Shown here: positions 13,569-62,317 of the stretch, piece by piece
How positions within the stretch are numbered: the first letter of the stretch is position 1
How the letters are laid out: each line of letters begins with the position of its first letter
Origin: an uncultured Dehalococcoidia bacterium
GTDB taxonomy: Bacteria; Chloroflexota; Dehalococcoidia; DSTF01; JACRBR01
Length of the DNA: 64,000 nucleotides
Assembly (NCBI GenBank): GCA_964599885.1
Contig: CAZRHH010000004.1
Span: forward strand, 9,082 to 73,081
Reading direction: 5' to 3'
Translations under genes and position numbers: made by a program
Notes under the pieces: model-generated
What the model was told of the DNA's origin: nothing
Database searches by the model: none
The model's input: the letters and a program-made list of their open reading frames with translations, nothing else

Positions 13569-14051
13569 TCAGGCGGCGCTGAAGCCCGAGTCGAGTTCAT
13601 CGAGATCGGCATTGAAGTCGAAGATCAGCTGGATCGGTTCTCCCGTATTCCCGTTGTCGTTGAAACTGTCAGCGTCCGTCTTGAGCTGGTGGCAATCGGC
13701 AACGATACCCTGACGCCGCTGCTGAAGAGAAACCTCCATGTGTCCGCGCGATGCCGTGCGAATATCATCCCACATGCTCGCCTGCTCTCCCTTCTCGCGC
13801 TTGGGCAACCGAACAACGTGCTTCGTCCGCACGCGGCGCCCCTGGGCGTCAGTGTAATACTCATCCCGCAATGCCCGCGCAAACTGATCGACGCACTGGC
13901 GGATCAATGCTCCCGGCTGGGGCTTCCAGTGGTTGTTCGCGATCGCCCAGTTCGCTACGTCGCGCAGTGTGGTGGGACCGGCGATACCATTCTCGGCCTG
14001 GTATCGGCGGAACAGGCCCTGCATCTGCTCGTTGAACGTAGACACATTCAC
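13569..14051 (-). CDS. hypothetical protein (160 aa), third gene of the HigB/HigA-peptidase module
   Basis: GTG start 16 nt after the HigA-ImmA stop, on the same strand. No recognisable family; lower GC than the flanks. Confidence 0.5.
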   Translation of the reverse strand: MNVSTFNEQMQGLFRRYQAENGIAGPTTLRDVANWAIANNHWKPQPGALIRQCVDQFARALRDEYYTDAQGRRVRTKHVVRLPKREKGEQASMWDDIRTASRGHMEVSLQQRRQGIVADCHQLKTDADSFNDNGNTGEPIQLIFDFNADLDELDSGFSAA

Positions 14052-14067
14052 ATCCTTTGGCTGTTGG

Positions 14068-15210
14068 TTAGACGTTGCCCGGCAGTTGGGATCCCCAGCC
14101 GTCAGTCAATGTGGAACCGATAACGATTTGGCGGATCGGGACGAGCAGTTTTCGGAGGTTGGCGTAACTGATTTCATGGAGGTGCTGTAGTTGGCCAACA
14201 ACAATGCCAGCATGTACCCCCGTCGTCCGGGCGAAGTTGTTCACGCGAGTAGCAGAAAACAACGGTCGAACACGAAGAACAAAGTCATGCAGCTGTTCCT
14301 TCGGAATCAGTGAGTTAACGGCGAAATCATCCGCGCGCCGTTCCGCCTCCGACTTTTCGCCCGCCAATAAACGCACCTCGTTAACTATCTCCTGATCGAG
14401 GACTGTGCCGTCCTCAAACAAGATGTGGGCGATCTCGTGCATCAAGGTGTGCCAAAAGTGGTCGATCCTGTCGTACCGGAGCGAAAGAACCACGACAGGA
14501 GCGTTGTCGAGCCAGAAGGAAGCACCATCAATTTTGGTGCCAGTGAGAGCCTCAACCATCAGGAAGCGGACGCCGTATTCTGAAAGGAGTTTGGGTACGT
14601 GGCGGGCGTTCTCGGGTTCATTCGCCAATTCTTTCAGTTCCCGTACGAGGGCGGGCAACTGCGCGCGAGAAAATGATTGCGTTGCGACGGCGGGCGCGAG
14701 CTGTCTGACTCTGCAAAGCCACGCGAGTTGAGCCGGAGAAGGTTTCTCATCATAGGATGTTGATTTGCGTGCCGCGTGCGCAAACTGCGGTTCGTCATCG
14801 AGAGTATCGATCCTCAGAAACTCCAATACCGCCAGCTCCAAAGCACCAATGTCACGCGTATCCTCGATCCAGTTCCGGCGAATCATTTCCCGCACCGGTG
14901 CCTTTGCGTACAAGCGCGCTCGTCGTGACACGGTGTCATCACGGTTGACGCGCGAGAGCCGGTACATCGATTCGAGATTGAGCCAGTACTGCGCACTTCC
15001 GCCGAGCGCGTCAGCGAGTGACTGGGCCGTCTCCGGCGTGATCCCGCGCTTTGCAGAGAGAATCTCGTGGACAACTGTGGGGCCGCGGCCGAGAATTTCG
15101 GCGAGGTCTGTTTGCGTCCAGCCACGCGCCTCGAGCTCGTCCTGCAAGAACTCGCCCGGGGAGAATACCTCGGCCGGGATCAGGTGCTCATTGCTCCTCT
15201 CGTGATTCAT
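14068..15210 (-). CDS. higA: HigA-type XRE HTH antitoxin fused to ImmA/IrrE (COG2856) Zn-metallopeptidase domain
   Basis: The N-terminus (PGEFLQDELEARGWTQTDLAEILG...AQYWLNLESMY) matches the HigA/VapI HTH. The C-terminus has HEIAHILFED, an HExxH motif in ImmA/IrrE context. Its start codon abuts the higB stop. Confidence 0.75.
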   Translation of the reverse strand: MNHERSNEHLIPAEVFSPGEFLQDELEARGWTQTDLAEILGRGPTVVHEILSAKRGITPETAQSLADALGGSAQYWLNLESMYRLSRVNRDDTVSRRARLYAKAPVREMIRRNWIEDTRDIGALELAVLEFLRIDTLDDEPQFAHAARKSTSYDEKPSPAQLAWLCRVRQLAPAVATQSFSRAQLPALVRELKELANEPENARHVPKLLSEYGVRFLMVEALTGTKIDGASFWLDNAPVVVLSLRYDRIDHFWHTLMHEIAHILFEDGTVLDQEIVNEVRLLAGEKSEAERRADDFAVNSLIPKEQLHDFVLRVRPLFSATRVNNFARTTGVHAGIVVGQLQHLHEISYANLRKLLVPIRQIVIGSTLTDGWGSQLPGNV

Positions 15211-15507
15211 CTAGTGGTAATCCTCGATCTTTTTCACCAAGACGATCTTGTTGGGAGCCGCCCCGGTCAGCTCTACGATCAGCCGGTACTGGTCGTTCAG
15301 GCGGAGTGAATGCTCATGCTGCCGTTTCCCTGCTAGTCGCTCGAACCGCAACGCCGGTCGTGCGTATAAATCGCGCTCATCAACAGCTGCACTTATCGCT
15401 TGCGTCGTCTTACGAAATCCCTTGACTAGGGCGAGAGACAGTCCTGCCGTAAAGCCCTTCTCCGTGTAGAGCCTCGTCAGCTTGGCGTCCGCGAATTCCA
15501 TTTCCAT
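15211..15507 (-). CDS. higB: HigB toxin (COG3549 plasmid-maintenance killer, RelE/ParE superfamily)
   Basis: MEFADAKL...GKRQHEHSLRLNDQYRLIVEL...IEDYH matches the Proteus-type HigB C-terminal signature (…EDYH). Start taken at MEMEF; the longer ORF extends to 15606. Confidence 0.7.
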   Translation of the reverse strand: MEMEFADAKLTRLYTEKGFTAGLSLALVKGFRKTTQAISAAVDERDLYARPALRFERLAGKRQHEHSLRLNDQYRLIVELTGAAPNKIVLVKKIEDYH

Positions 15508-15641
15508 CGGTTCGGGCGATCTTATTCGATCGTCCGAACCAACGCAACTATAGTTATCATGTTCTGCAGGAAATAGCAATATAGTATCCTCACGTTTTCC
15601 GGACATCGTGAAGATGTCGATACTCCTCCCTCGCCACGCTG

Positions 15642-26211: not shown

Positions 26212-26255
26212 CGCGGAGCGATCTGCTGGAGGATTTGACGCCTGAGCCTGCTATA

Positions 26256-26290
26256 CCGGGGCGAACACGTAGGTTCGCCCCTACCGCGGT
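26256..26290 (+). repeat. hairpin motif CCGGGGCGAACACGTAGGTTCGCCCCTACCGCGGT (5'-leader-like)
   Basis: Nine-base-pair stem GGGGCGAAC/GTTCGCCCC; a second copy lies at 49999-50032. Both sit about 130-230 nt upstream of a plus-strand gene start and are followed by a CGCTTCCC box. Confidence 0.65.
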
Positions 26291-37338: not shown

Positions 37339-38133
37339 GTGAACGAACCATCCTCATCTCAACCCAGCGATAGCAGTTGGACCGGTGCGCTCATCGCTGT
37401 CGCGGGTGGCGTGCTCGTCGTGCTTGTGTTCGTCGCCGGCGCGTTTGCGTTCGCGACGTGCGGTAGCTCGTCGGCGGAGCCTGCGGGCGATGTCTATGCA
37501 TCGCTGGGCGATTCGATCGCGGCGGGGAGCGGCGCGTCGGACGCCGCGACGACGGGCTGGGTGCCGCTCGTCGCCGCGCGCGAAGAAGGCGTGACTGCGT
37601 TCAACGTCGCGGTCGCCGGCGCGACGACGCAGGATCTGATCGACGAGCAGCTTGCACGCGTGCTGTCGATCTCGAACGGCGGCCGCGTGCGCTTCGTGAC
37701 GATCAGCGCCGGCGGCAATGATCTCGCCGGGCTGGTACCCAACGCCGCGTGCGTCGAGGATCCGCTCCCCGCGAGCTGCCCGCTCGAAGAGGCGCTCGCC
37801 GCCGTCGAGGCGAATCTTGAGACGATCGTGCGGCAGCTGCGCGACTCGAACAGGCGCATGCCGATCGTGCTGCTGGCGTATCCGAACTTCTTCTCTGGTA
37901 CCGGACACCCGTTCGAGGCGCCGGCCGGGCGCGTGCTCCCGCGCCTCAACGCCGTGATCGAGGAAGTGGCGTCGCGGTACGACCGCGTCACCGTCGCGCA
38001 TCCGTGGGACGCGTTCGACGGCAACGGAGGCCAACTGACCGGCGTACTGGGCGAGCCGTTTGATCCGCATCCGAACGATGCGGGTCACCGCGCCATCGCC
38101 GAGGCGGTAGCGACGGCACTGGAGGAAGCGTAG
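37339..38133 (+). CDS. SGNH/GDSL hydrolase family protein
   Basis: Signal/anchor then a GDSIAAG block (GDS(L) motif) and C-terminal DxxH. Confidence 0.75.
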   Translation: MNEPSSSQPSDSSWTGALIAVAGGVLVVLVFVAGAFAFATCGSSSAEPAGDVYASLGDSIAAGSGASDAATTGWVPLVAAREEGVTAFNVAVAGATTQDLIDEQLARVLSISNGGRVRFVTISAGGNDLAGLVPNAACVEDPLPASCPLEEALAAVEANLETIVRQLRDSNRRMPIVLLAYPNFFSGTGHPFEAPAGRVLPRLNAVIEEVASRYDRVTVAHPWDAFDGNGGQLTGVLGEPFDPHPNDAGHRAIAEAVATALEEA

Positions 38134-38145
38134 CGACGCTTGTTT

Positions 38146-38199
38146 TATCACCACAGAGACACAGAGACACAGAGGCACAGAGGCACAGAGTCGCAGAGG
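38146..38199 (+). repeat. TTCACCACAGAG-family repeat (copy 3, extended: 6 octamer units)
   Basis: tatcaccacagagacacagagacacagaggcacagaggcacagagtcgcagagg. Confidence 0.85.
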
Positions 38200-40429: not shown

Positions 40430-40576
40430 CCGTCCAAACCAAGTTCTAGCGCCCTCCAGCTTCCATCCTCCACCTTCTAGTGTTCCCATCGGGCACGCAC
40501 GACCTGACGGGGGCGGGCTTGTCATCAGGCGATCGCGGTGGCACGATACGGGCGGCGGGGAGCGAAAGGTGAGTAC

Positions 40577-41143
40577 ATGACGACCGATGCTATACCGTCC
40601 GACGAAGGGGCTGCGGAGAACGAGCGCGTGCCGTTTCCGCTGCAGGGTGACGAGCGGGTGATCCAGCTTGTCCGCAAGCACTGGCTGTTTCTCTGGCCGC
40701 GCGCTGTGTTGATGGTGCTGTTCGCGCTCGTGCCGGTGACGGTGATCGCGTTCGCGCTGTCGTGGGCTGACCAGTACGACGGGATCGTCGCGAAGATCTT
40801 CTGGGTCGTCGCTGGGCTGTGGATGCTGTACTGGTTCGCGCGCATCCTGCTCAACTGGTACCGCTATCACAACGACATCTGGGTGATCACGAACCAGCGC
40901 ATCGTCGACAGCATCAAGACAACGCCGTTCAATCACCGGTTGTCGACGGCGGACCTCGTCAACGTGCAGGACATGACGGTCGAGCGCAGCGGCATCCTGC
41001 ACACGATGTTCAACTACGGCGACATCATCTGCCAGACCGCATCGACCGGCGGCGACTTCACGCTCGTCGGCATCCCGCGCCCGGACGAAGTGCAGTTGCT
41101 CGTGGACAAGGAGCGCGATCGGGAGCGCATGCGGGGGCGCTGA
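40577..41143 (+). CDS. PH-domain (bPH_2/YdbT-like) membrane protein
   Basis: Two TM helices followed by a bacterial PH domain (NDIWVITNQRIVD). The 3' end is duplicated at 43136. Confidence 0.6.
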   Translation: MTTDAIPSDEGAAENERVPFPLQGDERVIQLVRKHWLFLWPRAVLMVLFALVPVTVIAFALSWADQYDGIVAKIFWVVAGLWMLYWFARILLNWYRYHNDIWVITNQRIVDSIKTTPFNHRLSTADLVNVQDMTVERSGILHTMFNYGDIICQTASTGGDFTLVGIPRPDEVQLLVDKERDRERMRGR

Positions 41144-41152
41144 GCGGAAGGC
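41090..41152 (+). repeat. direct repeat DR-L (3' end of the PH-domain gene including its stop)
   Basis: gtgcagttgctcgtggacaaggagcgcgatcgggagcgcatgcgggggcgctgagcggaaggc. About 85% identical to 43136-43198, with mostly synonymous differences. Confidence 0.8.
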
Positions 41153-41325
41153 GCGCCGTTGTTTGTTCAGCGCACATCGCCACTCAGCCGGGCAAGCACC
41201 AGGCCAGTCCGACACGGGACGGTCGTCGATGGTGCGTATCTTGATCGGACGCTCCATGTCATTGGATCGGCGAACCTTAGTGTGTCCGACCTGACTATTA
41301 GCGGAGGCTACGGGACATTCGACCC

Positions 41326-42960
41326 ATGACGCTTCCTGACTTGATGTGGGCTGCTCAGGGGATAGCACTCGTCGCGATCTTGATCACATGGCGCGGCCGG
41401 TTCGTTGTGCCGGCCGTTTTTGTGGCCGCGCTGGCCATTCTTGTTCTGCACGGTTACGTGTACTGGGATCACATCTCCGACGATGCATTCATTTCCTTCC
41501 GTTACTCTCAGAACCTCGCGCGCGGAGACGGACTCGTATGGAATCCTGACGAACGGGTTGAGGGATACTCGAATTTCCTCTGGGTGATCCTCCTGACGGG
41601 CACGGAGCTCTTGAGGATAGGCATCGTTGAACCATCGCGCTGGCTCGGCTTCGCTTCGACAGCTGGCGTCCTGGCCATAATCTATTTACTCGCCCAAGAG
41701 TTGACAGCATCCCGCCGGGATGCGGAAATCGCGTTCACGATCACGGCGCTGTTATTGGCTATCAGCGCGCCGGTTGCGATGTGGACGTTCGCTGGATTGG
41801 AGGAGCCGCTCTTTTCATTCCTAGTTGTGTCCGCCTTGTATTTGCACGTACGGGAAGTGCGCGCGGACTACAATCGGCCGTTTCAACTTTCGGCGGTAGT
41901 GTGCTTACTCGCTCTGTTGACCCGGCCCGACGGTTTTATCCTTGTGGGTGTTATCGGAGTACTCAAATGCTTCGAGTTGGTTGCCAAGTCACCTGACCGA
42001 CCAAAGTTCACGCAGTTCGCGTCATGGCTGCTTGCGATCGCGGTTCCCTTTGGGTGCTTCATCGCCTGGAGACTCTGGTACTACGACGATGTGCTACCGA
42101 ACACATTTTATCAAAAGCTCGACGGACGCGGTCTGTTCAATCGGGCCAGGATGGAAGACGGCTATCTCTACATCCGGCGGTTTTGGCGTGAGTATGGACT
42201 CGTTCTGATATTCCCCATTCCCTTCTTAAGCTTGCTTATCTCGGCTAAGCGGAAGGTCACTGCGAGCATCCTGCTGTTTTGCACCACATGGATGACCTAC
42301 GTGCTCATGATTGGCGGGGACTTCATGTGGTTCTTTCGATTCCTAGTGCCCGTGTATCCATTGCTGCTGCTCCTATCCGCTCATTTGCTCGTCGTGTGCT
42401 ACAGGCGGATATCGCCGCGGGTGCCCAAGGCTTCTGCGATTCTCGTTTGTGCCGCCTTCATGCTTGTGGCCATCACGATTATGCATGTGCCTGAGAAGGC
42501 CGTAGATGCGAATAATTTTGCTCTCGCCTCGCACCTGCACCGCAGAGAGATCGCTGTCTGGCTTCGTTCTCAGGACGAGCGCACAGTCGTCGCTGTAACC
42601 GCGGCGGGACAGGTTCCGTACGAGAGCCAGCTTCCGTCTATCGACATGCTGGGCCTCACGGACCGGCACATTGCGCGACAGCCTCCGTACCCGGGGAAAG
42701 GAGTGCCCGGGCACACGAAGGGCGACGCTCGCTATGTCCTGGACCTGCGTCCCGATGTGATCATGTACGGCTCTTTTCTTCAGTTCGAGGTCTGGACATT
42801 GACTTACTGGCAGAACTTGATTCCCTTCCTACCAGCCTATCGAGATCTATTTGAGCAACCGGATCTTTGGGAGTTGTACGAGCCAGCCTCGGTAAGGCTC
42901 GAACATGGCTACTTCAACTTCCTCAAACTTAAGAGCACGACCAGACTACGAATCCCATAA
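41326..42960 (+). CDS. GT-C-fold membrane glycosyltransferase (ArnT/PMT/arabinofuranosyltransferase-like)
   Basis: 544 aa, about 12 TM segments, DDAFISFRY acidic motif in the first periplasmic loop. Markedly lower GC than its flanks. Confidence 0.6.
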   Translation: MTLPDLMWAAQGIALVAILITWRGRFVVPAVFVAALAILVLHGYVYWDHISDDAFISFRYSQNLARGDGLVWNPDERVEGYSNFLWVILLTGTELLRIGIVEPSRWLGFASTAGVLAIIYLLAQELTASRRDAEIAFTITALLLAISAPVAMWTFAGLEEPLFSFLVVSALYLHVREVRADYNRPFQLSAVVCLLALLTRPDGFILVGVIGVLKCFELVAKSPDRPKFTQFASWLLAIAVPFGCFIAWRLWYYDDVLPNTFYQKLDGRGLFNRARMEDGYLYIRRFWREYGLVLIFPIPFLSLLISAKRKVTASILLFCTTWMTYVLMIGGDFMWFFRFLVPVYPLLLLLSAHLLVVCYRRISPRVPKASAILVCAAFMLVAITIMHVPEKAVDANNFALASHLHRREIAVWLRSQDERTVVAVTAAGQVPYESQLPSIDMLGLTDRHIARQPPYPGKGVPGHTKGDARYVLDLRPDVIMYGSFLQFEVWTLTYWQNLIPFLPAYRDLFEQPDLWELYEPASVRLEHGYFNFLKLKSTTRLRIP

Positions 42961-43135
42961 CTCCGGGTGCCAGCAAGGAAAGGCGACTCCATTCCTGGGA
43001 AAGGGTCCCCATCGCATCGACTGGGCAAAGGGGTAGGGACTGAAGGCTGCAATCGCAAAGGTCATGGGAGACAGGATTGCACGAGGCAATTTCAATGGCT
43101 ACTTCGCCGCCGTCGCGCGCTGCTGCGGCCCAGCG

Positions 43136-43198
43136 GTGCAGCTGCTGGTGGATAGGGAGCGCGATCGGGAGCGGACCCGGGGGCGGTGAGGGGAAGGC
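43136..43198 (+). repeat. direct repeat DR-R (relic copy of the PH-domain gene 3' end with preserved frame and stop)
   Basis: gtgcagctgctggtggatagggagcgcgatcgggagcggacccgggggcggtgaggggaaggc translates VQLLVDRERDRERTRGR*, versus VQLLVDKERDRERMRGR* in the intact gene. Confidence 0.8.
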
Positions 43199-43264
43199 CG
43201 ACGGATTGCGCGGGTCGGGTGGATGCGCTGCAACCTGAACGAATGCGGCACACCCGGTGGTGCG

Positions 43265-46003
43265 TCAGGCGGCGTCGGGTTGAGCGCGTTCCCGCTCGAA
43301 GAGCTTCGTGATGTCTTGGGGCTGCATGGGCTTGGCGAAGAGGAAGCCCTGACCCAGCTCGCAGTCCAAAGCTTGCAACCTGGACAGCTGGGCTCCTCGC
43401 TCGATGCCTTCGGCGACAACTTCGAGGTCGAGCGTCTTGCCGAGCTCAATGATCGCCCTGGCGATCTCCTTCTGGTTGACGCTCGTACCCAGGTCGTCGA
43501 TGAACGACTTGTCGATCTTCAGGAAGTCGAACGGGAACTGCCGGAGGTAGCTCAATGATGAGTAACCGGTGCCAAAGTCATCGATCGCGAGACCAACACC
43601 CAGTTCCTTGAGCTCCCGCAGGCGGACCAGCATCAGGTTGACGTCATACATCATGACGCTCTCGGTGATCTCCAGGATGAGCCGGCGCGGTTCCAGGCCC
43701 GTCTCGGCCAGCACGGTGCGCACGTCTTCAACGAAGGACGGTGCGTCGAGCTGTTTGGCGGAAACATTCACGCTCATCGTCCAGACTGGGTTGGACGGGA
43801 ACTGCTGCTGCCACTGAAACGCCTGCGCGCACGCCTGCCGGAGGATCCAGAGCCCCAGCGGGAGGATTGCGCCCGACTCCTCGGCGAGCGGGATGAACTC
43901 CTGGGGTGGCACCAACCCTCTCCGCGGGTGCTGCCATCGCACCAGCGCCTCGACGCCGTAGAGTTCGCCCTGCTTCAGCAGAAAGATCGGCTGGTAGTGA
44001 AGGACGAACTCTTCTCGCTCCACAGCGCGCGGGAGATCGGCCAGTAGTTCCAGGCGCTCGCTAAGCGACGTCTCCATGCTCAACTCGAACACCCGGTAGC
44101 AGCCCTTGCCGTGCGCTTTCGCGACGTACATCGCGATGTCGGCACGCCGAAGGAGCGTCTCCGCCTCCAGTTCCTGCGGCTGCTGCTCGGTCATCGCGAT
44201 GCCGAGGCTCGCGCGCACGAGAAGTTCCTTCGCGTCGACGTCAAACGACCGGGCGAGCGATTCGAGTACGCGATCCGCGACAGCGGTCGCATCCTCCACC
44301 GAGTCGATGTCTTCGAGCAGAATCGCGAACTCGTCTCCGCCAAGGCGCGCCAGCGTGTCGGCGGGCCGCAGACAACCGGTCACGCGCTCGCCCACCTGCG
44401 CCAGCACCAGGTCACCCGACGTGTGCCCGAACCTGTCGTTGATACTCTTGAAATCGTCCAGGTCCAGAAAGAGCACGGCCACCTGCGTACGTGACCGCGA
44501 CCGTCGCGCCAGCGCGTGATCCAGCCGATCGGCGAATCCGGTGCGGTTCGCAAGCCGCGTCAGCGGATCGTGCAAGGTCTGGTGTCGGAGCTGGTCCTCG
44601 AGTCGTTTTCGCTCGGTCATGTCGCGGACGTTGAGTACGAGCCCGCCGATCGCCGGGTTCGCACATTGGTCGCTGCCGGTGAACTCCAGATAACGCCAGA
44701 TCCCGTCGCTGTCGCGCAGGCGCCCTTCACCTGTGATCGTGCCCGCCGGCTTCATCATCAAGTCCCCAAGGGTCGCGACGAACTGGGCGCGGTCGTCTGG
44801 ATGTACGAAGTCGACGAGCTTTGCGGCGACAACCTGATCCGGATCGTAGCCGAGCACGCGCCGCACGGCGGGGCTCTGGTAGAGCACTGTCGTATCCGGA
44901 CTGATGACTGTGATCAGATCGGACGCGTTCTGCACGAGCGACCGAAATCGCTCTTCGCTGCGCCAGCGTTCGGTGATGTCGTGGATGATGAATACCGTCC
45001 CGACCCACTCACCAAGGTGGTCGAGCAGCTTCGAGCTCGACAGGATGGCGGCGCGCAACGATCCGTCGCTGCCCTCGTGGATCACCTCCAGCTCATGCTC
45101 GCCCTCGGGATCGCGCAGTCGCTCGAGCGCACCATCGCCCCAGCGCTGATCCAGCTCATCGAGTGACGTGCCCACCATGCTGCGACTCATTCCCCACACC
45201 GCTTGAGCCGACTCGTTCGCTACGCGCACCGTACCGTCTCGGTCGGTCACCAGCAGACCCTCCGCCATCGTGTCAATGATCTGCCGCGCCGCGAGGGCTG
45301 GCGTGATGTCGATGATGCGGTATCGCCAAATGTAGTACGTCGCGATCGCGACATAACCCAAAATGAAGATGTACCCGAAGGGATACACGCCGATGTGCAT
45401 TGCTGCCAGAAAGTCGACCGTGGCCGGCAGGGCCACGGCCAGCGCCACAAGCCGCAGCCGCATGCGCTTCTTGTGCGTGACGGACTGTGTCGCCTGCTGC
45501 CCCATCCGATAGAGCACGCCGCCGCCGACGAAGAACAGCCCGTAATAGGGAATGAGGAACTTCCCGGCGGGACCGTAGATCGGGTAGTAGCCCCAGAAGT
45601 ATTCGTGGATTCCGCTCAGCAACAGATCGGAGCCCAATGCAAGCGCCGCGAACACACTCGAGACGGCGAGCCCGATGATGATGCCCGCACGCATCGCGCG
45701 GAGCTTTGAACTCCCGTTCGCAGCATGTATGAATGCAAACACAGGGACGAACACCGTCCCGACCATGGAGATCTTCACCCAGACGAGCGCGACGTCGGGG
45801 TCGTGCGTGGAATTGGCGCCGCCGAGGCCCATCAGCCAGACGCCGATTGGCAACGTCATCAACAGCAGCGTTACGCTCTGAGTGGACCCGCGCTCACGTC
45901 TCCACGTGCCGAGACCGAACACCCAGTTCAGGGCGCCCACAACGATGACAGGTACGGCGTACCAGCTAAAGAAGTAAGCGGAGGGGTCCAGGAACTCGTT
46001 CAT
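43265..46003 (-). CDS. membrane sensor diguanylate cyclase/phosphodiesterase (multi-TM N-terminal domain, PAS domains, GGDEF, EAL)
   Basis: 912 aa; RLGGDEFAILL (GGDEF); EALVRW (EAL); PAS-like blocks; hydrophobic N-terminus of ~280 aa. Confidence 0.9.
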   Translation of the reverse strand: MNEFLDPSAYFFSWYAVPVIVVGALNWVFGLGTWRRERGSTQSVTLLLMTLPIGVWLMGLGGANSTHDPDVALVWVKISMVGTVFVPVFAFIHAANGSSKLRAMRAGIIIGLAVSSVFAALALGSDLLLSGIHEYFWGYYPIYGPAGKFLIPYYGLFFVGGGVLYRMGQQATQSVTHKKRMRLRLVALAVALPATVDFLAAMHIGVYPFGYIFILGYVAIATYYIWRYRIIDITPALAARQIIDTMAEGLLVTDRDGTVRVANESAQAVWGMSRSMVGTSLDELDQRWGDGALERLRDPEGEHELEVIHEGSDGSLRAAILSSSKLLDHLGEWVGTVFIIHDITERWRSEERFRSLVQNASDLITVISPDTTVLYQSPAVRRVLGYDPDQVVAAKLVDFVHPDDRAQFVATLGDLMMKPAGTITGEGRLRDSDGIWRYLEFTGSDQCANPAIGGLVLNVRDMTERKRLEDQLRHQTLHDPLTRLANRTGFADRLDHALARRSRSRTQVAVLFLDLDDFKSINDRFGHTSGDLVLAQVGERVTGCLRPADTLARLGGDEFAILLEDIDSVEDATAVADRVLESLARSFDVDAKELLVRASLGIAMTEQQPQELEAETLLRRADIAMYVAKAHGKGCYRVFELSMETSLSERLELLADLPRAVEREEFVLHYQPIFLLKQGELYGVEALVRWQHPRRGLVPPQEFIPLAEESGAILPLGLWILRQACAQAFQWQQQFPSNPVWTMSVNVSAKQLDAPSFVEDVRTVLAETGLEPRRLILEITESVMMYDVNLMLVRLRELKELGVGLAIDDFGTGYSSLSYLRQFPFDFLKIDKSFIDDLGTSVNQKEIARAIIELGKTLDLEVVAEGIERGAQLSRLQALDCELGQGFLFAKPMQPQDITKLFERERAQPDAA

Positions 46004-46302
46004 CGGCGGCTGACCTCGGCAGTCCGAACGTCAACTGACCCGCAAAGGCTCGGCTGCGGGTCAGGGTCAGTCAGGCACATGCCGAACGAGTATCGACCGA
46101 ACGGAGCACCGAATGAAGGGGCGGTCAGGTATCTGAATAGTCAGAAGAGTGCAGTTCCGACTCGATCAGCTCACCACCGTCGTTCACGCTTGCCGGGACA
46201 AAGAACGCGATCGCGAGCGGACTCGGGGCCGGTGATCGATCCGAGATTGGGGCGGGCTTTCGGCACTGGAGGGTGGAGACTGGACGGTTGACCTCCGCTC
46301 CT

Positions 46303-46941
46303 TCAGTCCACCGAGCGCCAAGCTAAACCCACATGGATGCCGTGTCCGATCGAGTCGTCGATTTGTCGATGCAGCGTGAGGGCTACAATCCGATCGTCGG
46401 AAACGTTGTAAGGATTTCTGACATCCGGCTCCCCAAGAACCGGCCCCATCGCATCGCCGGTGGGTTTCCACAACATCACCCAATTGCGGGTGGGAGAGCA
46501 TCGCCACGTGAGATCCACCTCGACTGGCCCGGGCGGGAGCTGGGTGTGCACCCGCGTAAGCGCCAGCCGGATGCGTTCCTTCCATGCCTTCTGGGTCGAT
46601 CCGCTGCCTGCATCTACGACCGCTTGAACCCACGAATCGGCCAAACTTTCGACAGCCGGCTCGGCGCGACCGATTGAGACTTCCGAGCCACCGCCGACGC
46701 GTTTTATCGCGCGAACCATCACGAAGCGGCGCCAGCCCAAATGACTCACTATGGGCGTGAGGTAATTTTCGAGGTCGTGGTGCCTGAGCAGGCGGCTCGG
46801 ATCGAGAACGTCGACGACAAGATCGAGGTAAAGCTGTTCACCCTCGGGAATGTCATCCATGAGCAAGAGCTCACGCAACCCCAGGAGATACGCCCGCATG
46901 CGCACTTGGGAAGGATGGTCCTGCCGCTCCCATGTTGCCAA
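46303..46941 (-). CDS. hypothetical protein (212 aa) immediately downstream of dnaN
   Basis: Lower-GC ORF. The segment LDLVVDVLDPSRLLRHHDLENYL...FVMVRAIKRVGGG loosely recalls the RusA resolvase core but lacks its acidic catalytic pair. Confidence 0.45.
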   Translation of the reverse strand: MATWERQDHPSQVRMRAYLLGLRELLLMDDIPEGEQLYLDLVVDVLDPSRLLRHHDLENYLTPIVSHLGWRRFVMVRAIKRVGGGSEVSIGRAEPAVESLADSWVQAVVDAGSGSTQKAWKERIRLALTRVHTQLPPGPVEVDLTWRCSPTRNWVMLWKPTGDAMGPVLGEPDVRNPYNVSDDRIVALTLHRQIDDSIGHGIHVGLAWRSVD

Positions 46942-47038
46942 GAGCGGCGAAATCCCGGTGTGGCTACAGTAGGTGGCGCCGAACTCCCAACGCTGGGGCA
47001 GCGGAGCGGTGTCCGAGTTCCACGAAGTGTCTAGCCAG

Positions 47039-48172
47039 CTACCACTGCACGAACATGGGCATCACGACGTGGACGTAGTTGTCGGATTCGAGTGGGCGGA
47101 TGACGGCGGGTTGTGACGGGCCCGTCGTTTCGAGGGCGACGCGGCCACCGTCGAGCACCTGCAGCACTTCTTGCAGATACTTGCCGTTCAGGGCGATCTT
47201 CGACGGCTCGCCTTCGACGACGGCGTCGAGCTCGCCCTGGTTGTCGCCGATCTCTTCGGCGCGGGCCGACAGCGCCATGTGTCCGGGCGTTCCGTCTTCG
47301 CCGGCTTCGAACGTGATGCGGACGATGCCGCTGCCGTCACGCGCGAAGATCGACGCGATCTTCGTCTCCTGCAGGAAGTCGCGCACTTCGACGACGGCGC
47401 GGCTGCCCCATTCTTTCGGCAGCAGGCGGCTGTAGTCGGGGAACGTGCCCTGGATGAGCTGCGCGACGAGCTCGACATCCTTCAGCCGGAACAGCACCTG
47501 CGTCTTCGTGGCGTTGAACGTCATCGTGACGGGCTCTTCCTGATCCTGGAGCAGGCGGTTCAACTCGCCGAGCGCCTTCGCCGGGACGATCACTTCTTGC
47601 TTCTCCGGCGCCTTCTTCTTGAGCTTGAGGTGGCGCACCGCGAGCCGGAACCCGTCGGTGGCGGCGAACGTCAGCTGATCGTTCTCGACGACGAGATGCA
47701 CGCCGGTGAGTACCGGCCGCGAGTCGTCGGTGGCGGCGGAGAAGACGACCTGCGTAGTCGCCTCGCGCAGCGCCTTGGGATCGATTTCGAGCGATCCGCC
47801 GTCTTCGACAGCCGGGATCGCCGGGAAGTCGTCGGCATCGATGCCGCCGATCGTGGCCTCGTTGCGCGCGCATTTCACCTTGAGCTGCTTCGAGCGGGCG
47901 GGCAGCGTGAACTCGATTTTTTCAGACGGAAGCGAGTTTACGAAGTCCGTCAGCAGGCGCGCGGGGACTGTGATGGCCCCCTCTTCTTCTATCTGGCCGC
48001 CGATCCAGCAGCTCAGCGCGATGTCGAGATTCGTCGCCGCCAGCTTGATGCGGCCATGCTCCGTCGTGATCAGCACGTTCGCCGTAATCGGCAGCGTGCT
48101 GCGCAGCGCGACCGCGCGACCGACGATTCCGAGACCTCGCGCGAGGTTCTCCTGTAGACACGTAACCTTCAT
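47039..48172 (-). CDS. dnaN: DNA polymerase III beta sliding clamp
   Basis: MKVTCLQENLARGLGIVGRAV...; three-domain ~377-aa clamp. ATG at 48172. Confidence 0.9.
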   Translation of the reverse strand: MKVTCLQENLARGLGIVGRAVALRSTLPITANVLITTEHGRIKLAATNLDIALSCWIGGQIEEEGAITVPARLLTDFVNSLPSEKIEFTLPARSKQLKVKCARNEATIGGIDADDFPAIPAVEDGGSLEIDPKALREATTQVVFSAATDDSRPVLTGVHLVVENDQLTFAATDGFRLAVRHLKLKKKAPEKQEVIVPAKALGELNRLLQDQEEPVTMTFNATKTQVLFRLKDVELVAQLIQGTFPDYSRLLPKEWGSRAVVEVRDFLQETKIASIFARDGSGIVRITFEAGEDGTPGHMALSARAEEIGDNQGELDAVVEGEPSKIALNGKYLQEVLQVLDGGRVALETTGPSQPAVIRPLESDNYVHVVMPMFVQW

Positions 48173-48461
48173 AGCGCTCACCTGTGTAACCATATTACGC
48201 GGAGTATAAGACAGCCCTCAGGAAGCGACAATAGATCAACGCGCATGATCATTTTCTTATGGATAGTAGGTTGTTCTTCGCTTCGCCGGGGCAGCGCAGC
48301 GTCTGCTGTCGCATCCGCTGCTTTCTGAAAAGGTGTTTTTCGGGGGACACCCCCGCGCCCCCGGCAGGCGCTGCGCCCTGCACCCGCCGCGGCTGGTCGC
48401 TGGTCACTGGTGGGTGATCGGTGATCGGTGAAGCATGGCACGGGACGGCGAGGAGCACGAC

Positions 48462-48969
48462 TCAGATTACGCGGGAGTTGTCGAAGTACTGGACGGGGCC
48501 GCGCCAGCGGTCGTCGTTCCACGCGTGTTCTTCGTACTGGCCGTTGGTGTAGCGGCCGATGATGGCGCGCCAGAATGCATGGGCGCGGTCATTCGCGGCG
48601 AGCTCGCGCACCTGCCAGCGTGCGGGGTATTCGTCGAACATTTGGCGCGCCATCAACTCGCCCGCTCCGTGGCGGCGATACTTCTGCATCACGAAGAACT
48701 CGGCCACGTCCATCACTGGTTCGCCGCCATCGAGCGGTGCGTCGTCGCGCCGCACAAGCACGAAACCCGCCAGCTTGCCGCCGATGCGCAGCAGAAACGG
48801 ATGGCGCGTCGCTTCCTCGAAGTAGCTGTCGAGGCGGTCGAAGCCGTAGCGGCCGTCGTCCTCGACGTCGGTGTCTTCCATCGACGTGAACTCGTAGATG
48901 TAGAGTTCGAGGAGGTTGCCGAGGATCTCGCGGTCTTCGGGACGGGCTTTGTTGATGGTGATGTTCAAT
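48462..48969 (-). CDS. GNAT-family N-acetyltransferase
   Basis: Acetyl-CoA-binding motif (QKYRRHGAGELMARQMF). The track ORF extends to 48995, but those codons are the reverse complement of the CACAGAGG repeat, so a TTG start near 48969 is preferred. Confidence 0.65.
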
Positions 48970-48971
48970 TT

Positions 48972-49000
48972 TTCACCACAGGGGCACAGAGGCACAGAGG
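48972..49000 (+). repeat. TTCACCACAGAG-family repeat (copy 4)
   Basis: ttcaccacaggggcacagaggcacagagg. Confidence 0.85.
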
Positions 49001-56344: not shown

Positions 56345-56369
56345 GGATGCAGCGTAGCTAGACTGGACG

Positions 56370-56403
56370 GTTCACCACAGAGGCACAGAGGGGCAGAAGG
56401 GGA
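56370..56403 (+). repeat. TTCACCACAGAG-family repeat (copy 5)
   Basis: ttcaccacagaggcacagaggggcagaagggga. Confidence 0.85.
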
Positions 56404-59877: not shown

Positions 59878-60177
59878 GTTGTGATTACCCGGAACGATGC
59901 GCGATTGCCTGACGCATCACGTCAGGATAGCGGGCGGGGAATCCATCCAGGCTTCGGCGCCTAGCGTGATCAGGTAACCGGCGAAGAGGAGGTGCCGTAA
60001 TTACCGGGTACGAAGCCGATATCGACGGCACGCTCACCGAAGTGAGCAGCATTCACGACGGATCGCCTGCGACGTTCGCCGGACTGGCGGTAGACTGACG
60101 CTCGCCGCCCGACCTCACGGATCCTCGTAGGACGGACAGCTCCGATCGGTAGATCGTAGAAACAGGAGGTCCCGGAC

Positions 60178-60912
60178 ATGCCAACCGCTATCGGCCGGAA
60201 CGAAGCTCAACGTCTCATTAGCGAGGAGCGAGCTCAGCTCGTAGAGGTGTTACCCGAATCGGAATTCGAGGAGAGCCACATTGAAGGAGCCCGCAACATT
60301 CCCTTGAAGCGCCTGGATCGCGACAGGGTCGGCGAGTTAAACGCTGCCTCGCCCATCATCGTGTATTGTCACGACTGCCTTTGAGACATGAGCGCACGGG
60401 CCGCGTGGCGGCTCGAAACTCTTGGCTTCAACCGGGTCTACCGTTACACGGCTGGTAAGTCCGACTGGTCCGGCAGCGGCCTGCCGATGGAAGGCAAAGC
60501 CGAAGGCCAACCCACCGCCGGCAGCATCATTCGTCGCGGTGTGCCGACATGCAGGTTGGATGAGCGTTTCGGAGAGGTTCGCGCCAGAGTACGTGCAGCT
60601 GGCTGGGACTCCTGTGTGGTGGTGGGTAGCGAAGGCGTAGTGCTCGGACGGCTCCGCAACGAGGTGCTTGAGGGATCCTCAGAAGTTGCAGTTGATAGTG
60701 TTATGGAGTCCGGCCCGACGACCATCCGGCCCGACGTCTCGCTTCAATCGATCGTCGCCCGCCTTCGCCGAAAGAACGTGGAACAAGTCCTCGTGACGAC
60801 GCCCGATGGTGAGCTGCTCGGCGTACTCTTTCGAGAAGACGCGGAGCGACAGGTGACGAGCGCAGATGCCGCCCCACATGATGACGAAGACGCATGCGAG
60901 TGTGGCGTATAG
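60178..60912 (+). CDS. rhodanese-domain plus CBS-pair protein interrupted by one in-frame TGA (60382-60384): candidate selenoprotein or nonsense pseudogene
   Basis: Track ORFs 60178-60384 and 60388-60912 are in the same frame, separated only by a TGA and a GAC. Together they read ...IIVYCHDCL-TGA-DMSARAAWRLETLGF... (rhodanese active-site loop), followed by a CBS pair. Confidence 0.5.
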
Positions 60913-60952
60913 GTGGTCGCGGTGTTGCGTCACGCCGCGGCGAGTGCGGTGG

Positions 60953-62317
60953 TTACGTCAGGATCCCCGGCGGGGAATCCATCCACGCCTCGGCGCCTAG
61001 TGTGATGAGGTAGCCGGCAAACAACAACAACCCCGTGATCAGGTGGACCTGCACGTTTTTGCCCATCGACGCCATCAGCGTGTACGGGTCGCCGTAGTGG
61101 GCGCGGATGCCGCGGTACACGCTGAGCGCCATCGGCGCGGCGATCAGGGCGATCAGCGTCGGCCGCGGCAGCACGCCCGTCGCGCCGCCGATCGCCACGA
61201 CGGCGAAGGCGAGGATCGCTGCGACGAGGAAGCCGTTGGTGACGACTTCGGGCGAGAGGCGCGTCGGCAGCGTGCGCTTGCCGGCGAGGGCGTCGCTGTT
61301 GCGGTCGGGGATCTCGTTCACGTAGAGGATGAGCGCGATGAGGATGGCGACCGGGATCGATGCGACGAACGCTTCGCCGGACAGCGCCTCGCGCTGGACG
61401 ACGTAGGCGCCGAGCACCATGAGTGGGCCGAAGCCGATCGCCGTCGTGATCTCGCCGAGGCCGCGGTAGACGAGCTTGAACGGCGGCGCCGTGTAGAAGA
61501 CGCTGAGCAGCACGCCCGCGACGCCGATCGCCAGCAGCTCCCACGACGGACGCAGCGCGAGCAGCAGCAGCCCGACGGCGATGCCGACGGCGTAGGCGCC
61601 GATCGACACAGCGCCCATCTGCCGCAGCGTCACGAGGCCGCGCTGGATGACGCGTGAGCCGCCGCTGTACTGCGTCGGGTTGACGTTCGCTTCATCGGCG
61701 CCGGAGAGCGCGTCGAAGACGTCGTTCGCGGTGTTGAGGCCGATGTGGATCGCGCAACCGCCGAGCATCGTCAGGATCGCGAGCCACCAGTTGAAGCCGC
61801 CGTCGCGTGCGGCGACGGCGAGTCCGAGTAGAATCGGCACGATCGTCGCCGTCAGAAACGGCAGGCGAGTCGAGAGCAGTACGGTCCAGACGCGCGAGAG
61901 TCGCGGCTTGACGATGCGGCCCTGCTCTTCGGAAATCTGCGCGAGGTATGTGCGGGCCTGCTCGTTCGAGCGCTCGGAGTACTCGAAGAACGGCATCTCC
62001 TTCTCGTCCCAGCCCCAGGCGCGGGCGGGGCGGAAGATCGTCGCGCCGCTGTCATGACGTTCGGCGCGGCCGTGCATCGTCACGTAGCGGCGCTCGTCGT
62101 AGCCGGTGCCGGGCTGCGGACGGATGTGGCTGCCGATGACGTTGACGTCGCGGTCGGCGGGCACGGGCATGCCGGTGGGCGCGATGCGCACGACGCCGTC
62201 GGCGGCGTCGGACTCGAACGACGCGGGGATCTGCATCGGATAGCCGTCGTCATCGATCCACGTGAGCACGATGTGCGGGTACGTGCTGAGCTTCGTCAGC
62301 GCGACATCGATGTTCAT
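60953..62317 (-). CDS. PPOX-like flavin-binding domain fused to UbiA-family prenyltransferase (MenA-like)
   Basis: N-terminal ~140-aa split-barrel-like region, then eight TM helices with the aromatic prenyltransferase motif (NTANDVFDALSGAD, NDxxDxxxD). Confidence 0.7.
   Translation of the reverse strand: MNIDVALTKLSTYPHIVLTWIDDDGYPMQIPASFESDAADGVVRIAPTGMPVPADRDVNVIGSHIRPQPGTGYDERRYVTMHGRAERHDSGATIFRPARAWGWDEKEMPFFEYSERSNEQARTYLAQISEEQGRIVKPRLSRVWTVLLSTRLPFLTATIVPILLGLAVAARDGGFNWWLAILTMLGGCAIHIGLNTANDVFDALSGADEANVNPTQYSGGSRVIQRGLVTLRQMGAVSIGAYAVGIAVGLLLLALRPSWELLAIGVAGVLLSVFYTAPPFKLVYRGLGEITTAIGFGPLMVLGAYVVQREALSGEAFVASIPVAILIALILYVNEIPDRNSDALAGKRTLPTRLSPEVVTNGFLVAAILAFAVVAIGGATGVLPRPTLIALIAAPMALSVYRGIRAHYGDPYTLMASMGKNVQVHLITGLLLFAGYLITLGAEAWMDSPPGILT

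Follow-up and report, generated by a model that had tools for sequence, protein, structure and literature searches.

The window analysed here, a 64-kb stretch of the genome of an uncultured soil Chloroflexota bacterium (Dehalococcoidia), contains a gene for a bPH_2 membrane protein of 188 aa (PH gene, 40577..41143, + strand; Pfam PF03703, 27 bits versus a cut-off of 22), which stands downstream of Ham1-MoaA-MoaC. Orthologues in 107 related loci, drawn from one genome scan and one metagenome scan (~900 kb), often lie directly 3' of MoaC. In the window, the PH gene is followed by a glycosyltransferase (GT) gene, a second copy of the PH gene end, a GGDEF-EAL gene and a third copy of the end. The same arrangement is present in two independent Logan assemblies, SRR6868922 and SRR6868923, which are identical over 6–10 kb, and this rules out an assembly artefact. 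Exact-protein look-ups with PH, GGDEF-EAL and DnaN returned identical proteins from the source contigs only.

Three ends of one gene

The working end of the PH gene (end 1, 41090..41152, + strand) comprises its last 17 codons, the stop codon and 9 nt; a weak terminator-like hairpin (41137-41154), with a T-rich run behind it, overlaps the stop. An orphan copy (end 2, 43136..43198, + strand) encodes VQLLVDRERDRERTRGR and a stop, is likewise followed by 9 nt, and matches end 1 at 54 of 63 bases (86%) with a spacing of 2046. The first-pass annotation had described this pair as 63-bp repeats of ~85% identity that duplicate the last 17 codons and stop of the PH gene; its coordinates were right, and the 9 following nucleotides belong to the repeat as well. 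A third copy, also an orphan and the most eroded (end 3, 46197..46238, + strand), lies beyond the GGDEF-EAL gene. Its coding part and stop, DKERDRERTRGR plus stop codon, occupy 46197-46235 and are followed by TCG, which is also found at the end in the relative L030; weak similarity may reach back to 46182. The single ~2-kb island proposed earlier is replaced by a structure of two stacked segments and three gene ends, of which the copies that came with the segments span 12–17 codons.

Relative to end 1, end 2 has 5 codons changed synonymously and 2 residues replaced (K>R and M>T), and both replacement residues are present in natural orthologues; end 3 differs from end 1 by 6 synonymous changes and 1 replacement. 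Frame and stop are kept in all three copies, as had been stated for the second. The bias towards synonymous sites gave p = 0.004 for ends 1 and 2, 9e-5 for ends 1 and 3, and 0.002 for ends 2 and 3. Because the differences are mostly synonymous, the ends are alleles of a working gene end and not products of a decayed in-place duplication. The best match to the 63-mer in 100 simulated 64-kb windows of the same dinucleotide content was 38/63 (mean 34.1).

A profile HMM of 84 PH orthologues, run over the six frames of 41144-47038, revealed no longer PH pseudogene, including upstream of 43136, where a paralogous one had been named as the finding that would overturn the insertion reading. Only the last 17 codons were matched, end 2 corresponding to profile positions 164-180. 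The HMM was also run on the insert of the distant relative L018 (56% aa identity) and on the corresponding interval of L030, and in all of these stretches taken together it matched nothing beyond the last 17–25 codons. The sampled PH lineages reached at most 87% identity to any one of the ends, and no donor was found among them.

At the nucleotide level, the PH end is only moderately better conserved than the gene as a whole (rank 51 of 172 windows), and the idea of a specially conserved landing pad was dropped. Folding of the ends was not unusual relative to shuffled sequences (z -0.5 to +1.45), no motif common to the ends was detected, and no Rfam families or tRNA/tmRNA genes were present in the window. 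Two inner-end motifs were considered: ATTTCAAT, which precedes both end 2 in the window and the far copy in L018, and GTCAGAAGAG, which is found close to end 3 and, in L018, behind the near copy. Both are compatible with chance, and they were dropped as cassette motifs because their positions are inconsistent.

Cargo of the PH–dnaN interval

The first cargo segment (41153..43135, + strand) holds a lone GT gene (41326-42960), with non-coding stretches of 173 nt and 175 nt on its two sides. Its GC content of 0.565 is the lowest of any 2 kb in the 64 kb (mean 0.648, sd 0.026; minimum at 41151), and GC3 of the gene is 0.67 versus 0.81–0.92 in neighbouring host genes, in agreement with the lower GC noted at first reading. 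The description of the product as a 544-aa GT-C membrane glycosyltransferase was also upheld. Its family profile matches mycobacterial AftB (9dlf) with E = 3e-27, and Foldseek with the AlphaFold model (pLDDT 91.4) placed AftB 9dlf on top (E = 8e-9), followed by PglB/STT3, ArnT and AftA. The modelled fold is predicted to combine a multi-pass N-terminal domain with a periplasmic C-terminal domain, as in GT-C enzymes. An acidic DD motif in the first extracytoplasmic loop (DDAFISFRY) has a nearly invariant D52 and an invariant D53 among 40 homologues. The score against the AftB equivalog NF041481 (NCBIfam) was 22.5 bits, with a cut-off of 1050 bits. By its sequence, the protein is a distant member of the AftB family (CAZy GT89 neighbourhood) and no AftB orthologue. 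The nearest homologue is 52% identical, and homologues occur in unrelated contexts. A GT gene 3' of PH was absent from all ~100 related loci; with the lack of a longer pseudogene, this sustains the view that an insertion brought its own copy of the gene end.

The second cargo segment (43199..46196, - strand) contains a 7TM-PAS-GGDEF-EAL gene (43265-46003; domains by Pfam) together with its 193-nt upstream region. The gene has near-native codon usage (GC3 0.81) and is typical of this lineage; orthologues 83–55% identical lie in unrelated contexts, where neither PH nor flanking repeats are present. An ORF of 198–212 aa (46303..46941, - strand) with no Pfam or PADLOC match and with atypical codon usage (GC3 0.69) stands between end 3 and dnaN. 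It is absent from L030, and no homologue was found in any related locus. It lies within the variable interval, and its tie to the repeats is uncertain.

The right border of the interval is formed by dnaN, encoding the DNA polymerase III beta subunit (47039..48193, - strand; Pfam families). The closest relative, L030, has a PH gene 89% identical at the nucleotide level and a dnaN 93% identical in nucleotides and 99% in amino acids, with homology beginning exactly at the dnaN stop. Between PH and dnaN it carries an unrelated HEC-01A/B defence gene pair. Among the ~100 related loci, none had PH joined to the sequence after 43198 or 46238. The comparison with relatives suggested by the first-pass annotation thus bore out that none shares the GT arrangement, and yielded no exact empty site, L030 having other cargo. 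Several related pairs differ by indels directly 3' of the PH stop without a duplicated end. Elsewhere in the window, at 13.5–15.6 kb, another low-GC islet (HigB and HTH-ImmA) is without a flanking gene-end repeat.

Recurrence of the footprint and search for mobility genes

The footprint was found in six insertion events at four target genes: PH twice and a UbiA-family gene in the window, PH in L018, and one gene each in the relatives L068 and L080. The UbiA locus (59917..61021, - strand) consists of the working gene end (60953-61021, - strand), an insert of 967 nt (59986-60952) and an orphan end (59917-59985, - strand) encoding FAGYLITLGAEAWMDSPPAILT and a stop. Within the insert lies an ORF for a rhodanese-CBS protein (60178-60912, + strand), which has a TGA codon in frame at 60382-60384. 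The two UbiA ends are 87% identical, with 9 nt differences, 1 amino-acid change and a synonymous bias of p = 1e-4; UbiA orthologues are at most 75% identical.

In L018, the insertion lies at the PH gene end; the two ends differ at 4 positions, 3 of them non-synonymous, and the far copy retains the terminator hairpin of the gene. The L068 insertion lies at a convergent gene, and its two copies match two different natural alleles that occur in five relatives with empty sites: the orphan equals the L066 allele, and the working copy is L108-like. This match to natural alleles supports the reading of the ends as alleles. The junction beyond the L068 orphan appears non-homologous, since the spacer is shortened. 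In L080, the insertion lies at an SprT-like gene. Across the six events, the cargo measures 0.4–5.3 kb and stands in either orientation, and the orphans are short 3'-terminal pieces of 7–26 codons plus stop that end 0–23 nt past the stop. The shared segments span 39–85 nt at 82–95% identity, with perfect blocks of 17–38 nt.

Two further loci from the ORF-end scan, L031 and L067, were rejected as tandem paralogues with homology over 540–610 nt, and scan matches spaced 97–291 nt apart were set aside as short tandem intergenic repeats.

No integrase or transposase was found in any of the six events. In the window, no tyrosine, serine or DDE integrase was detected by Pfam (~25 ORFs, including all of those at 33–52 kb) or PHROGs (the other 37 window ORFs, E ≤ 1e-5), and a motif scan of 965 kb with a crude regular expression found no tyrosine- or serine-recombinase signature; these screens are partial. 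A PHROGs census of the 144 ORFs that lie up to 5 kb downstream of PH in ~70 loci showed no recurrent integrase family in the best 25 of 62 families; a single integrase could escape this census. The degenerate gene-end pattern had no match in viral contigs, the cassette DNA had none in plasmid or phage collections, and no integrase-bearing element with the same ends was found in the 107 related loci, the viral contigs or these collections. The flanks of the cargo genes, at 66–193 nt, leave no room for decayed mobility genes. Related loci and homologue searches revealed no circular form, no donor and no PH–GT adjacency.

Origin of the insertions

We propose that circles carrying cargo and a foreign gene end entered stepwise by single crossover, and we put the probability of this reading, which weakly favours host recombination, at roughly 0.45. 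The anatomy of the locus, the allelic character of the ends, the recurrence of the footprint and the lack of recombinase genes are shown by the data; for the circular intermediate, the order of events and the enzyme, we infer the following. The PH–dnaN interval would be an insertion hotspot, as is suggested by the unrelated HEC-01A/B pair between conserved PH and dnaN genes in L030, and would have been filled stepwise. Each incoming circle would have carried its cargo and the last 12–26 codons and stop of another lineage's PH gene, and one reciprocal crossover between the copy on the circle and the resident gene end would have led to insertion (Campbell-type integration). Such an integration would restore an intact PH gene and displace the earlier end downstream as an orphan. 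The GGDEF-EAL segment probably arrived first, leaving end 3, and the low-GC GT segment probably later, adjoining the PH gene and leaving end 2. This polarity is suggested by the gene-adjacent segment being the least host-like (GC3 0.67 versus 0.81), by the farthest end being the shortest and most eroded, and by the hairpin retained in the far copy of L018. The recombination function would be encoded outside the inserts; rather than a dedicated integrase, it may be the homologous recombination of the host, acting on the short stretch of gene end that both partners share. A crossover between the flanking repeats could free a circle again, cargo and gene end making up a passive cassette.

The GGDEF-EAL gene is typical of the lineage, and chromosomal DNA of relatives therefore fits better as the source than mobile-element cargo. 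In many bacterial hotspots, mobile elements are absent and homologous recombination drives the turnover (PMC5635113). A host-driven crossover would also be expected to produce duplicated 5' gene ends, of which none was noticed, although they were not scanned for systematically. Segments of 39–85 nt at 82–95% identity are poor substrates for RecA with respect to minimal homology and mismatch repair, so that host recombination would require rare events as well as the survival of repeats that are short and diverged and therefore stable. It is a classic hallmark of site-specific integration that elements stack at one site and that a distant relative uses this site again; the two stacked segments in the window and the use of the same site in L018 thus weaken the case for homology.

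A close rival, possible although we consider it unlikely, is that the segments are decayed or non-autonomous site-specific elements akin to CIMEs, with an attP mimicking the PH end, stacked by accretion, whose tyrosine or serine integrase was lost, or minimal cassettes that an integrase encoded elsewhere mobilises in trans. Under this explanation, the direct repeats would naturally take in the 3' end of the target and leave the gene intact, their lengths lie near the 8–60 bp described for IMEs, L018 would have used the same site independently, and the low GC of the insert is accounted for. At the 3' ends of protein genes, ICEs and IMEs accrete into arrays through successive arrivals, as in the ICESt1/ICESt3 relatives at fda, and integrase-less CIMEs still flanked by both repeats, as the segments are here, are documented (PMC5704250), as is the outward shift of older elements by tandem accretion (also in tycheposons). 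In sequence terms, the segments would answer to the description of a CIME, with both att sites kept and mobility genes gone. However, CIMEs derive from integrase-bearing parents, whereas no parent, integrase or recognisable fragment was found in the six events, the flanks are too short for one, and each unit is a single gene with hardly any DNA to spare. For the four unrelated targets, four integrase specificities would be needed, all lost or all acting in trans. The lack of a recurrent integrase family downstream of PH (best 25 of 62 families), of a recombinase motif in 965 kb and of viral, plasmid or phage matches, and the only moderate conservation of the PH end (rank 51 of 172 windows), also argue against it. 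An integrase acting in trans could lie elsewhere, since the window covers 64 kb of the genome.

The first-pass annotation had read the repeats as attL and attR of a decayed integrative element that lacks an integrase. The insertion with its gene end stands, and so does the lack of an integrase, which extends to fragments and leaves flanks of only 173 and 175 nt. A decayed site-specific island is unproven, because neither an integrase, a fragment nor room for one was found, because six events at four targets share the lack of a recombinase, and because the locus is a two-segment stack with no exact empty site among relatives. A homology-driven or trans-acting mechanism fits at least as well.

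Several known systems resemble the locus. In staphylococci, SCCmec and pseudo-SCC elements insert at the last codons of rlmH (orfX), with repeats separating stacked cassettes, and some SCC cassettes are without recombinase genes and rely on ccr in trans. The likeness lies in the insertion at the last codons of a conserved gene and the repeats between stacked cassettes; the SCC repeats, in contrast, are a short defined ccr site in a system with ccr genes, whereas those here are 39–85 nt of diverged coding sequence without a known recombinase. In IS26 translocatable units, a circle with cargo and one repeat inserts beside a resident copy, giving a repeat-cargo-repeat order that can stack; there an insertion sequence of 820 bp that encodes its transposase acts as the repeat, and here a gene end of 40–90 nt without an enzyme. 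Integron arrays share compact, mostly single-gene cassettes, a repeated site of ~60 nt and the lack of a recombinase in the cassettes, but the locus has no IntI, attI or folded attC-like site, its cargo is of mixed orientation, and a host gene supplies its repeated site in the form of a coding end. Tycheposons, the tRNA-linked islands of Prochlorococcus, have newcomers that push older elements inward and scattered remnants of the target gene (bioRxiv 10.1101/2020.12.28.424599); their tRNA target, tyrosine recombinases and integrase fragments were not seen here.

That linear DNA from relatives was incorporated by ordinary recombination without a circle, either by double crossover in flanking genes or through one homologous end and an illegitimate join, the orphan ends being incidental debris, is clearly less probable. 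Between conserved flanks, the PH–dnaN interval is wholly different in the two closest genomes, and the greater divergence of PH (89% nt) than of dnaN (93% nt) hints at allelic exchange. The indels right after the PH stop without a duplicated end, and the apparently non-homologous far junction in L068, also accord with such events. The mobile-element-free hotspots that provide the model are likewise variable intervals with conserved borders and no mobility genes (Oliveira et al. 2017, PMC5635113). However, that model involves clean replacement, in which the anchors are not duplicated, and fragment replacement alone makes no same-strand duplicate of an anchor; the orphan ends point to an additive single crossover. 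Random debris should moreover give internal or long fragments, whereas all six orphans are 3'-terminal.

In-place duplication (a long target-site or tandem duplication) followed by neutral decay, or descent of the ends from full-length PH paralogues, is improbable, and for the window this reading is largely refuted. Staggered-cut insertion or tandem duplication would leave flanking direct repeats, and three of the four L018 differences are non-synonymous, as neutral decay predicts. The strong synonymous bias in four comparisons indicates, however, that the copies diverged as working gene ends, and the two L068 copies are two natural alleles. The repeats, at 39–94 nt, are longer than known target-site duplications, none of the frames showed further homology to PH, and the true tandem paralogues L031 and L067 look different, with homology over 540–610 nt. 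A transposon-type insertion with target-site duplication would face the same bias, which is not that of neutral decay, and no transposase was found.

Chance similarity or a metagenome assembly chimera, which the metagenomic contig and the arginine-/glutamate-rich, low-complexity gene end might suggest, is extremely improbable, given the 54/63 match versus a simulated maximum of 38/63, the frame and stop kept in three copies, the two identical independent assemblies, and the fact that joining at a shared k-mer would give no orphan fragments.

Hotspots without mobility genes are common in bacteria, and the usual explanation for them is a clean double crossover in the core genes on either side. 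As alleles of foreign lineages, the orphan ends described here would be a physical trace of an additive, single-crossover route. If host recombination suffices, uncultured lineages poor in integrases could add single adaptive genes while the target gene stays intact; the cargo here includes a cell-envelope glycosyltransferase and c-di-GMP signalling proteins, and that of the closest relative a defence gene pair. If integrases acting in trans are responsible instead, the locus would extend a known process to a target gene and a host group that are both new. A duplicated ORF end with synonymous divergence is a simple signature that can be searched for in metagenomes to date and order gene gains. 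It is tempting, though doubtful, to see in the single crossover of small circles at a gene 3' end a general route of gene gain in soil Dehalococcoidia without element-encoded recombinases. If so, circles of one or a few genes with the last 10–25 codons of a host gene could stack, pop out and pass from one lineage to another; every gene end could then serve as a landing pad, with cargo and gene end together forming a minimal passive mobile unit.

Three copies of one gene end

The gene for a bPH_2 membrane protein (PH gene, 40577-41143, 188 aa, Pfam PF03703) is preceded by Ham1-MoaA-MoaC. Its final 17 codons, stop codon and the next 9 nt (end 1, 41090-41152) recur at 43136-43198 (end 2) with 54 of 63 bases identical, compared with a best chance match of 38/63 in 100 simulated windows of the same dinucleotide content. 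The repeat of ~85% identity described in the first-pass annotation is thus borne out, as is the retention of the PH frame and stop in end 2. The differences, described there as almost all synonymous, comprise 5 synonymous codon changes but also 2 replacements; both replacement residues are found in natural PH orthologues. The annotation saw a single ~2-kb insertion. The bracketed segment stands, but a third gene end had been overlooked (end 3, 46197-46235, same strand as ends 1 and 2, GACAAAGAACGCGATCGCGAGCGGACTCGGGGCCGGTGA, translated DKERDRERTRGR*), directly beyond a 7TM-PAS-GGDEF-EAL gene (43265-46003, minus strand, Pfam). The order is therefore PH gene with end 1, glycosyltransferase gene (GT), end 2, GGDEF-EAL, end 3, an ORF of 198-212 aa (46303-46941, minus strand) and dnaN. 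This ORF has a GC3 of 0.69 and atypical codon usage, gave no family match, and is missing from every other locus compared, including the closest relative, L030. The arrangement from PH through GT to end 2 is identical in two independent assemblies. A PH profile HMM (84 orthologues), run over six frames of 41144-47038, matched ends 2 and 3 at its final 17 positions only. They are thus not remnants of longer pseudogenes, which disposes of a paralogous pseudogene extending upstream of 43136.

Synonymous bias was assessed by placing the observed differences randomly and counting the placements that altered so few residues without creating a stop (p = 0.004 for ends 1 and 2, 9e-5 for ends 1 and 3, 0.002 for ends 2 and 3). 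Because an orphan fragment, detached from its gene, escapes selection, the divergence must have arisen while each copy was a working PH end, and the ends come from different lineages. From their sequences, ends 1-3 are alleles rather than the decayed products of duplication in place. They are about equidistant, any two sharing 31-33 of 39 bases, and none of the sampled PH lineages is >87% identical to any of them, which points to sources outside those lineages.

The PH-dnaN interval and its cargo

PH orthologues were surveyed in species-representative genomes and in metagenome contigs, with one scan of each. This gave 107 loci, all from Chloroflexota/Dehalococcoidia MAGs or soil/sediment contigs. 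GT was found within the flanks of none of the 107, so the arrangement is not one shared by all relatives, and none of them showed a strict empty site. L030 matches the window at 40514-41146 (89% nt), and its homology resumes exactly at the dnaN stop codon (dnaN 93% nt, 99% aa identity), while the 2 kb between PH and dnaN have no similarity to the window. This segment (L030 1840-3811) carries genes for an AAA_21 ATPase and a DUF4276 protein, which match HEC-01A/B, a candidate defence system in PADLOC (E 5e-140, 6e-63). With conserved flanks and unlike content, the PH-dnaN interval is a variable hotspot. Several other closely related pairs differ by 0.4-1.6 kb immediately 3' of the PH stop. Upstream, window-L030 homology ends 63 nt before the PH start (window 40514, L030 1207), and two unknown ORFs stand in L030 where the window has MoaC. 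The PH gene thus has non-homologous DNA on both sides in this comparison, and is more diverged than dnaN.

The DNA between ends 1 and 2, noted earlier as low in GC, is the lowest 2 kb of the window (GC 0.565, minimum at 41151). GT (544 aa) is its sole gene, with a GC3 of 0.67 against 0.81-0.92 in neighbouring genes. A family profile from 40 homologues matches mycobacterial AftB (E 3e-27), and the predicted model (pLDDT 91.4) finds AftB, PglB/STT3, ArnT and AftA as best fold matches. In the first-loop DD motif, D53 is invariant and D52 nearly invariant among the homologues. The lone cargo gene product, as predicted, has the GT-C fold first assigned to it. Orthology with AftB is ruled out (score 22.5 bits; cut-off 1050), and the closest homologue is 52% identical. 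At L109 (2974-3168; also L110 and L111), a GT homologue (49% identity) is followed by an overlapping 64-aa fragment of DNA-3-methyladenine glycosylase I (Adenine_glyco) on the opposite strand, possibly a further case of insertion beside a truncated gene end.

The GGDEF-EAL gene has native codon usage and orthologues of graded identity in this lineage. The orthologues in L113, L114 and L115 (79-83% aa) have wholly different neighbours in each, and DNA similarity stops at most ~15 nt from the coding region.

The only other 2-kb stretch with GC <0.60 (13569-15606, minus strand; GC3 0.59-0.75) contains, along with an unknown ORF of 160 aa, genes for a HigB-like toxin and for an HTH plus ImmA/IrrE (Peptidase_M78) protein; it has no flanking gene-end repeat.

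Gene-end repeats at other genes

Duplicated ORF ends were sought in 848 kb, with the upstream side as control, giving 12 downstream matches and 0 upstream. The survivors were the window PH and UbiA loci and L018; the remaining matches were tandem paralogues or short tandem repeats. In L018 (10466-15903; PH 56% aa identical), an 85-nt repeat of 95% identity, the last 26 PH codons plus stop, brackets a 5.3-kb insert holding four genes for zinc-ribbon/LysM membrane proteins; the far copy retains a strong terminator hairpin, AGGAGGCGGCCAATTGGCCGCCTCCTTTG. In the window, a UbiA/MenA-like prenyltransferase gene (60953-62317, minus strand) has its final 22 codons duplicated, and the 67-nt repeat (87% identity) brackets a 967-nt insert; insert and repeats together span 59917-61021. 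This pair has 9 nucleotide differences and 1 amino-acid change (p = 1e-4). Its cargo, a rhodanese-CBS ORF (60178-60912, plus strand), has an in-frame TGA (60382-60384) in the rhodanese active-site loop (IVYCHDCL*DMSAR), and is either a pseudogene or carries a recoded codon. Within the window, no dispersed direct repeats other than the PH and UbiA pairs reach both 60 nt and 85% identity. Shorter intergenic repeats also occur: one in three copies (38121-38173, 48946-48998, 56345-56397; core TTCACCACAGAG(A/G)CACAGAG(A/G)CACAGA), and a REP-like, hairpin-like repeat of 37 nt (923-959 and 26250-26286; core GGCGGACACGGGGGTCCGCC, 84% identity).

Two further loci were identified by pairwise and direct-repeat comparisons. 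At L068 (491-980), a 390-nt insert, which contains a membrane ORF of 86 aa, lies between 47-nt repeats of the 7 final codons, stop and 3' UTR of a gene convergent with PH, and the empty site is seen in five relatives (L037, L061, L066 and L108 among them). The orphan copy is exactly the L066 allele, and its working counterpart is close to that of L108; the two match two different natural alleles, so that DNA from two lineages has been joined. At L080 (1989-3775; the same in L081), a 94-nt repeat of an SprT-like gene end (82% identity, with indels) brackets a 510-aa GAF-HD-GYP signalling gene, a second c-di-GMP-related cargo.

As first noted, no integrase was found. Pfam gave no integrase, transposase or resolvase in the ORFs of 33-52 kb or any cargo gene, and PHROGs no recombinase in the other 37 window ORFs. 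Searching 965 kb with crude motifs likewise revealed no signature of tyrosine or serine recombinases. Among the top 25 families listed for 144 ORFs, taken from the 5 kb downstream of PH at ~70 loci, no integrase family recurred. Neither tRNA or tmRNA genes nor Rfam matches occur in the window, the gene ends show no unusual folding, and nothing similar was found in the viral contigs, plasmids and phages searched. Decayed mobility genes would not fit in the cargo-gene flanks of 66-193 nt.

Origin of the stacked gene ends

A circular molecule carrying cargo and a copy of the gene end could undergo a single reciprocal crossover with the chromosomal end, leaving same-strand repeats around the insert; a second crossover at the rebuilt gene end would give the observed stack. 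We regard this topology, the simplest source of same-strand duplicates and, by repetition, of the stack, as well supported, with a probability of roughly three in four. The polarity agrees: GT, least host-adapted in composition, adjoins the gene, and erosion is strongest in the end that lies farthest off.

The textbook explanation is site-specific integration, by accretion of elements that became CIMEs (att-flanked elements without an integrase; PMC5704250; tycheposons, bioRxiv 10.1101/2020.12.28.424599) or were mobilised in trans. Stacking at one site favours it, as does L018, where the PH end was used independently. Of the decayed attL/attR island proposed in the first-pass annotation, the insertion with its own gene end holds, but neither an integrase nor a piece of one turned up in six events at four unrelated target sequences, the cargo comes in compact units, the search for an integrase-bearing relative came up empty, and GGDEF-EAL is an ordinary lineage gene. 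These observations incline us, weakly, towards host homologous recombination acting on the short shared end. On this reading, recombination between the flanking repeats could re-form the circle, and survivorship would explain why the repeats still visible are short, diverged and hence stable. However, such short, diverged homology makes a poor substrate, neither a circle nor a donor was observed, and our view of the genome is 64 kb. Linear double-crossover turnover (PMC5635113) accounts for the hotspot but leaves the duplicated ends unexplained, and is much less likely. Also much less likely is an origin by duplication in place followed by neutral decay, or as remnants of deletion, which the synonymous bias and the two alleles at L068 contradict.

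Functionally, the PH locus would resemble a CIME/accretion array, or an SCC-type composite island sited where a conserved gene ends, but no integrase was present or could be traced. It is neither an integron nor a transposon-type insertion, and is best filed as integrase-less minimal cassettes, flanked by gene ends and stacked at a protein-coding gene. A lone 2-kb insertion is by itself ordinary. Such cassettes recur at several genes in soil Dehalococcoidia, and this recurrence without recombinases, together with the foreign-allele ends, supports the testable idea that genes are gained by an additive route, one that may be independent of recombinases.
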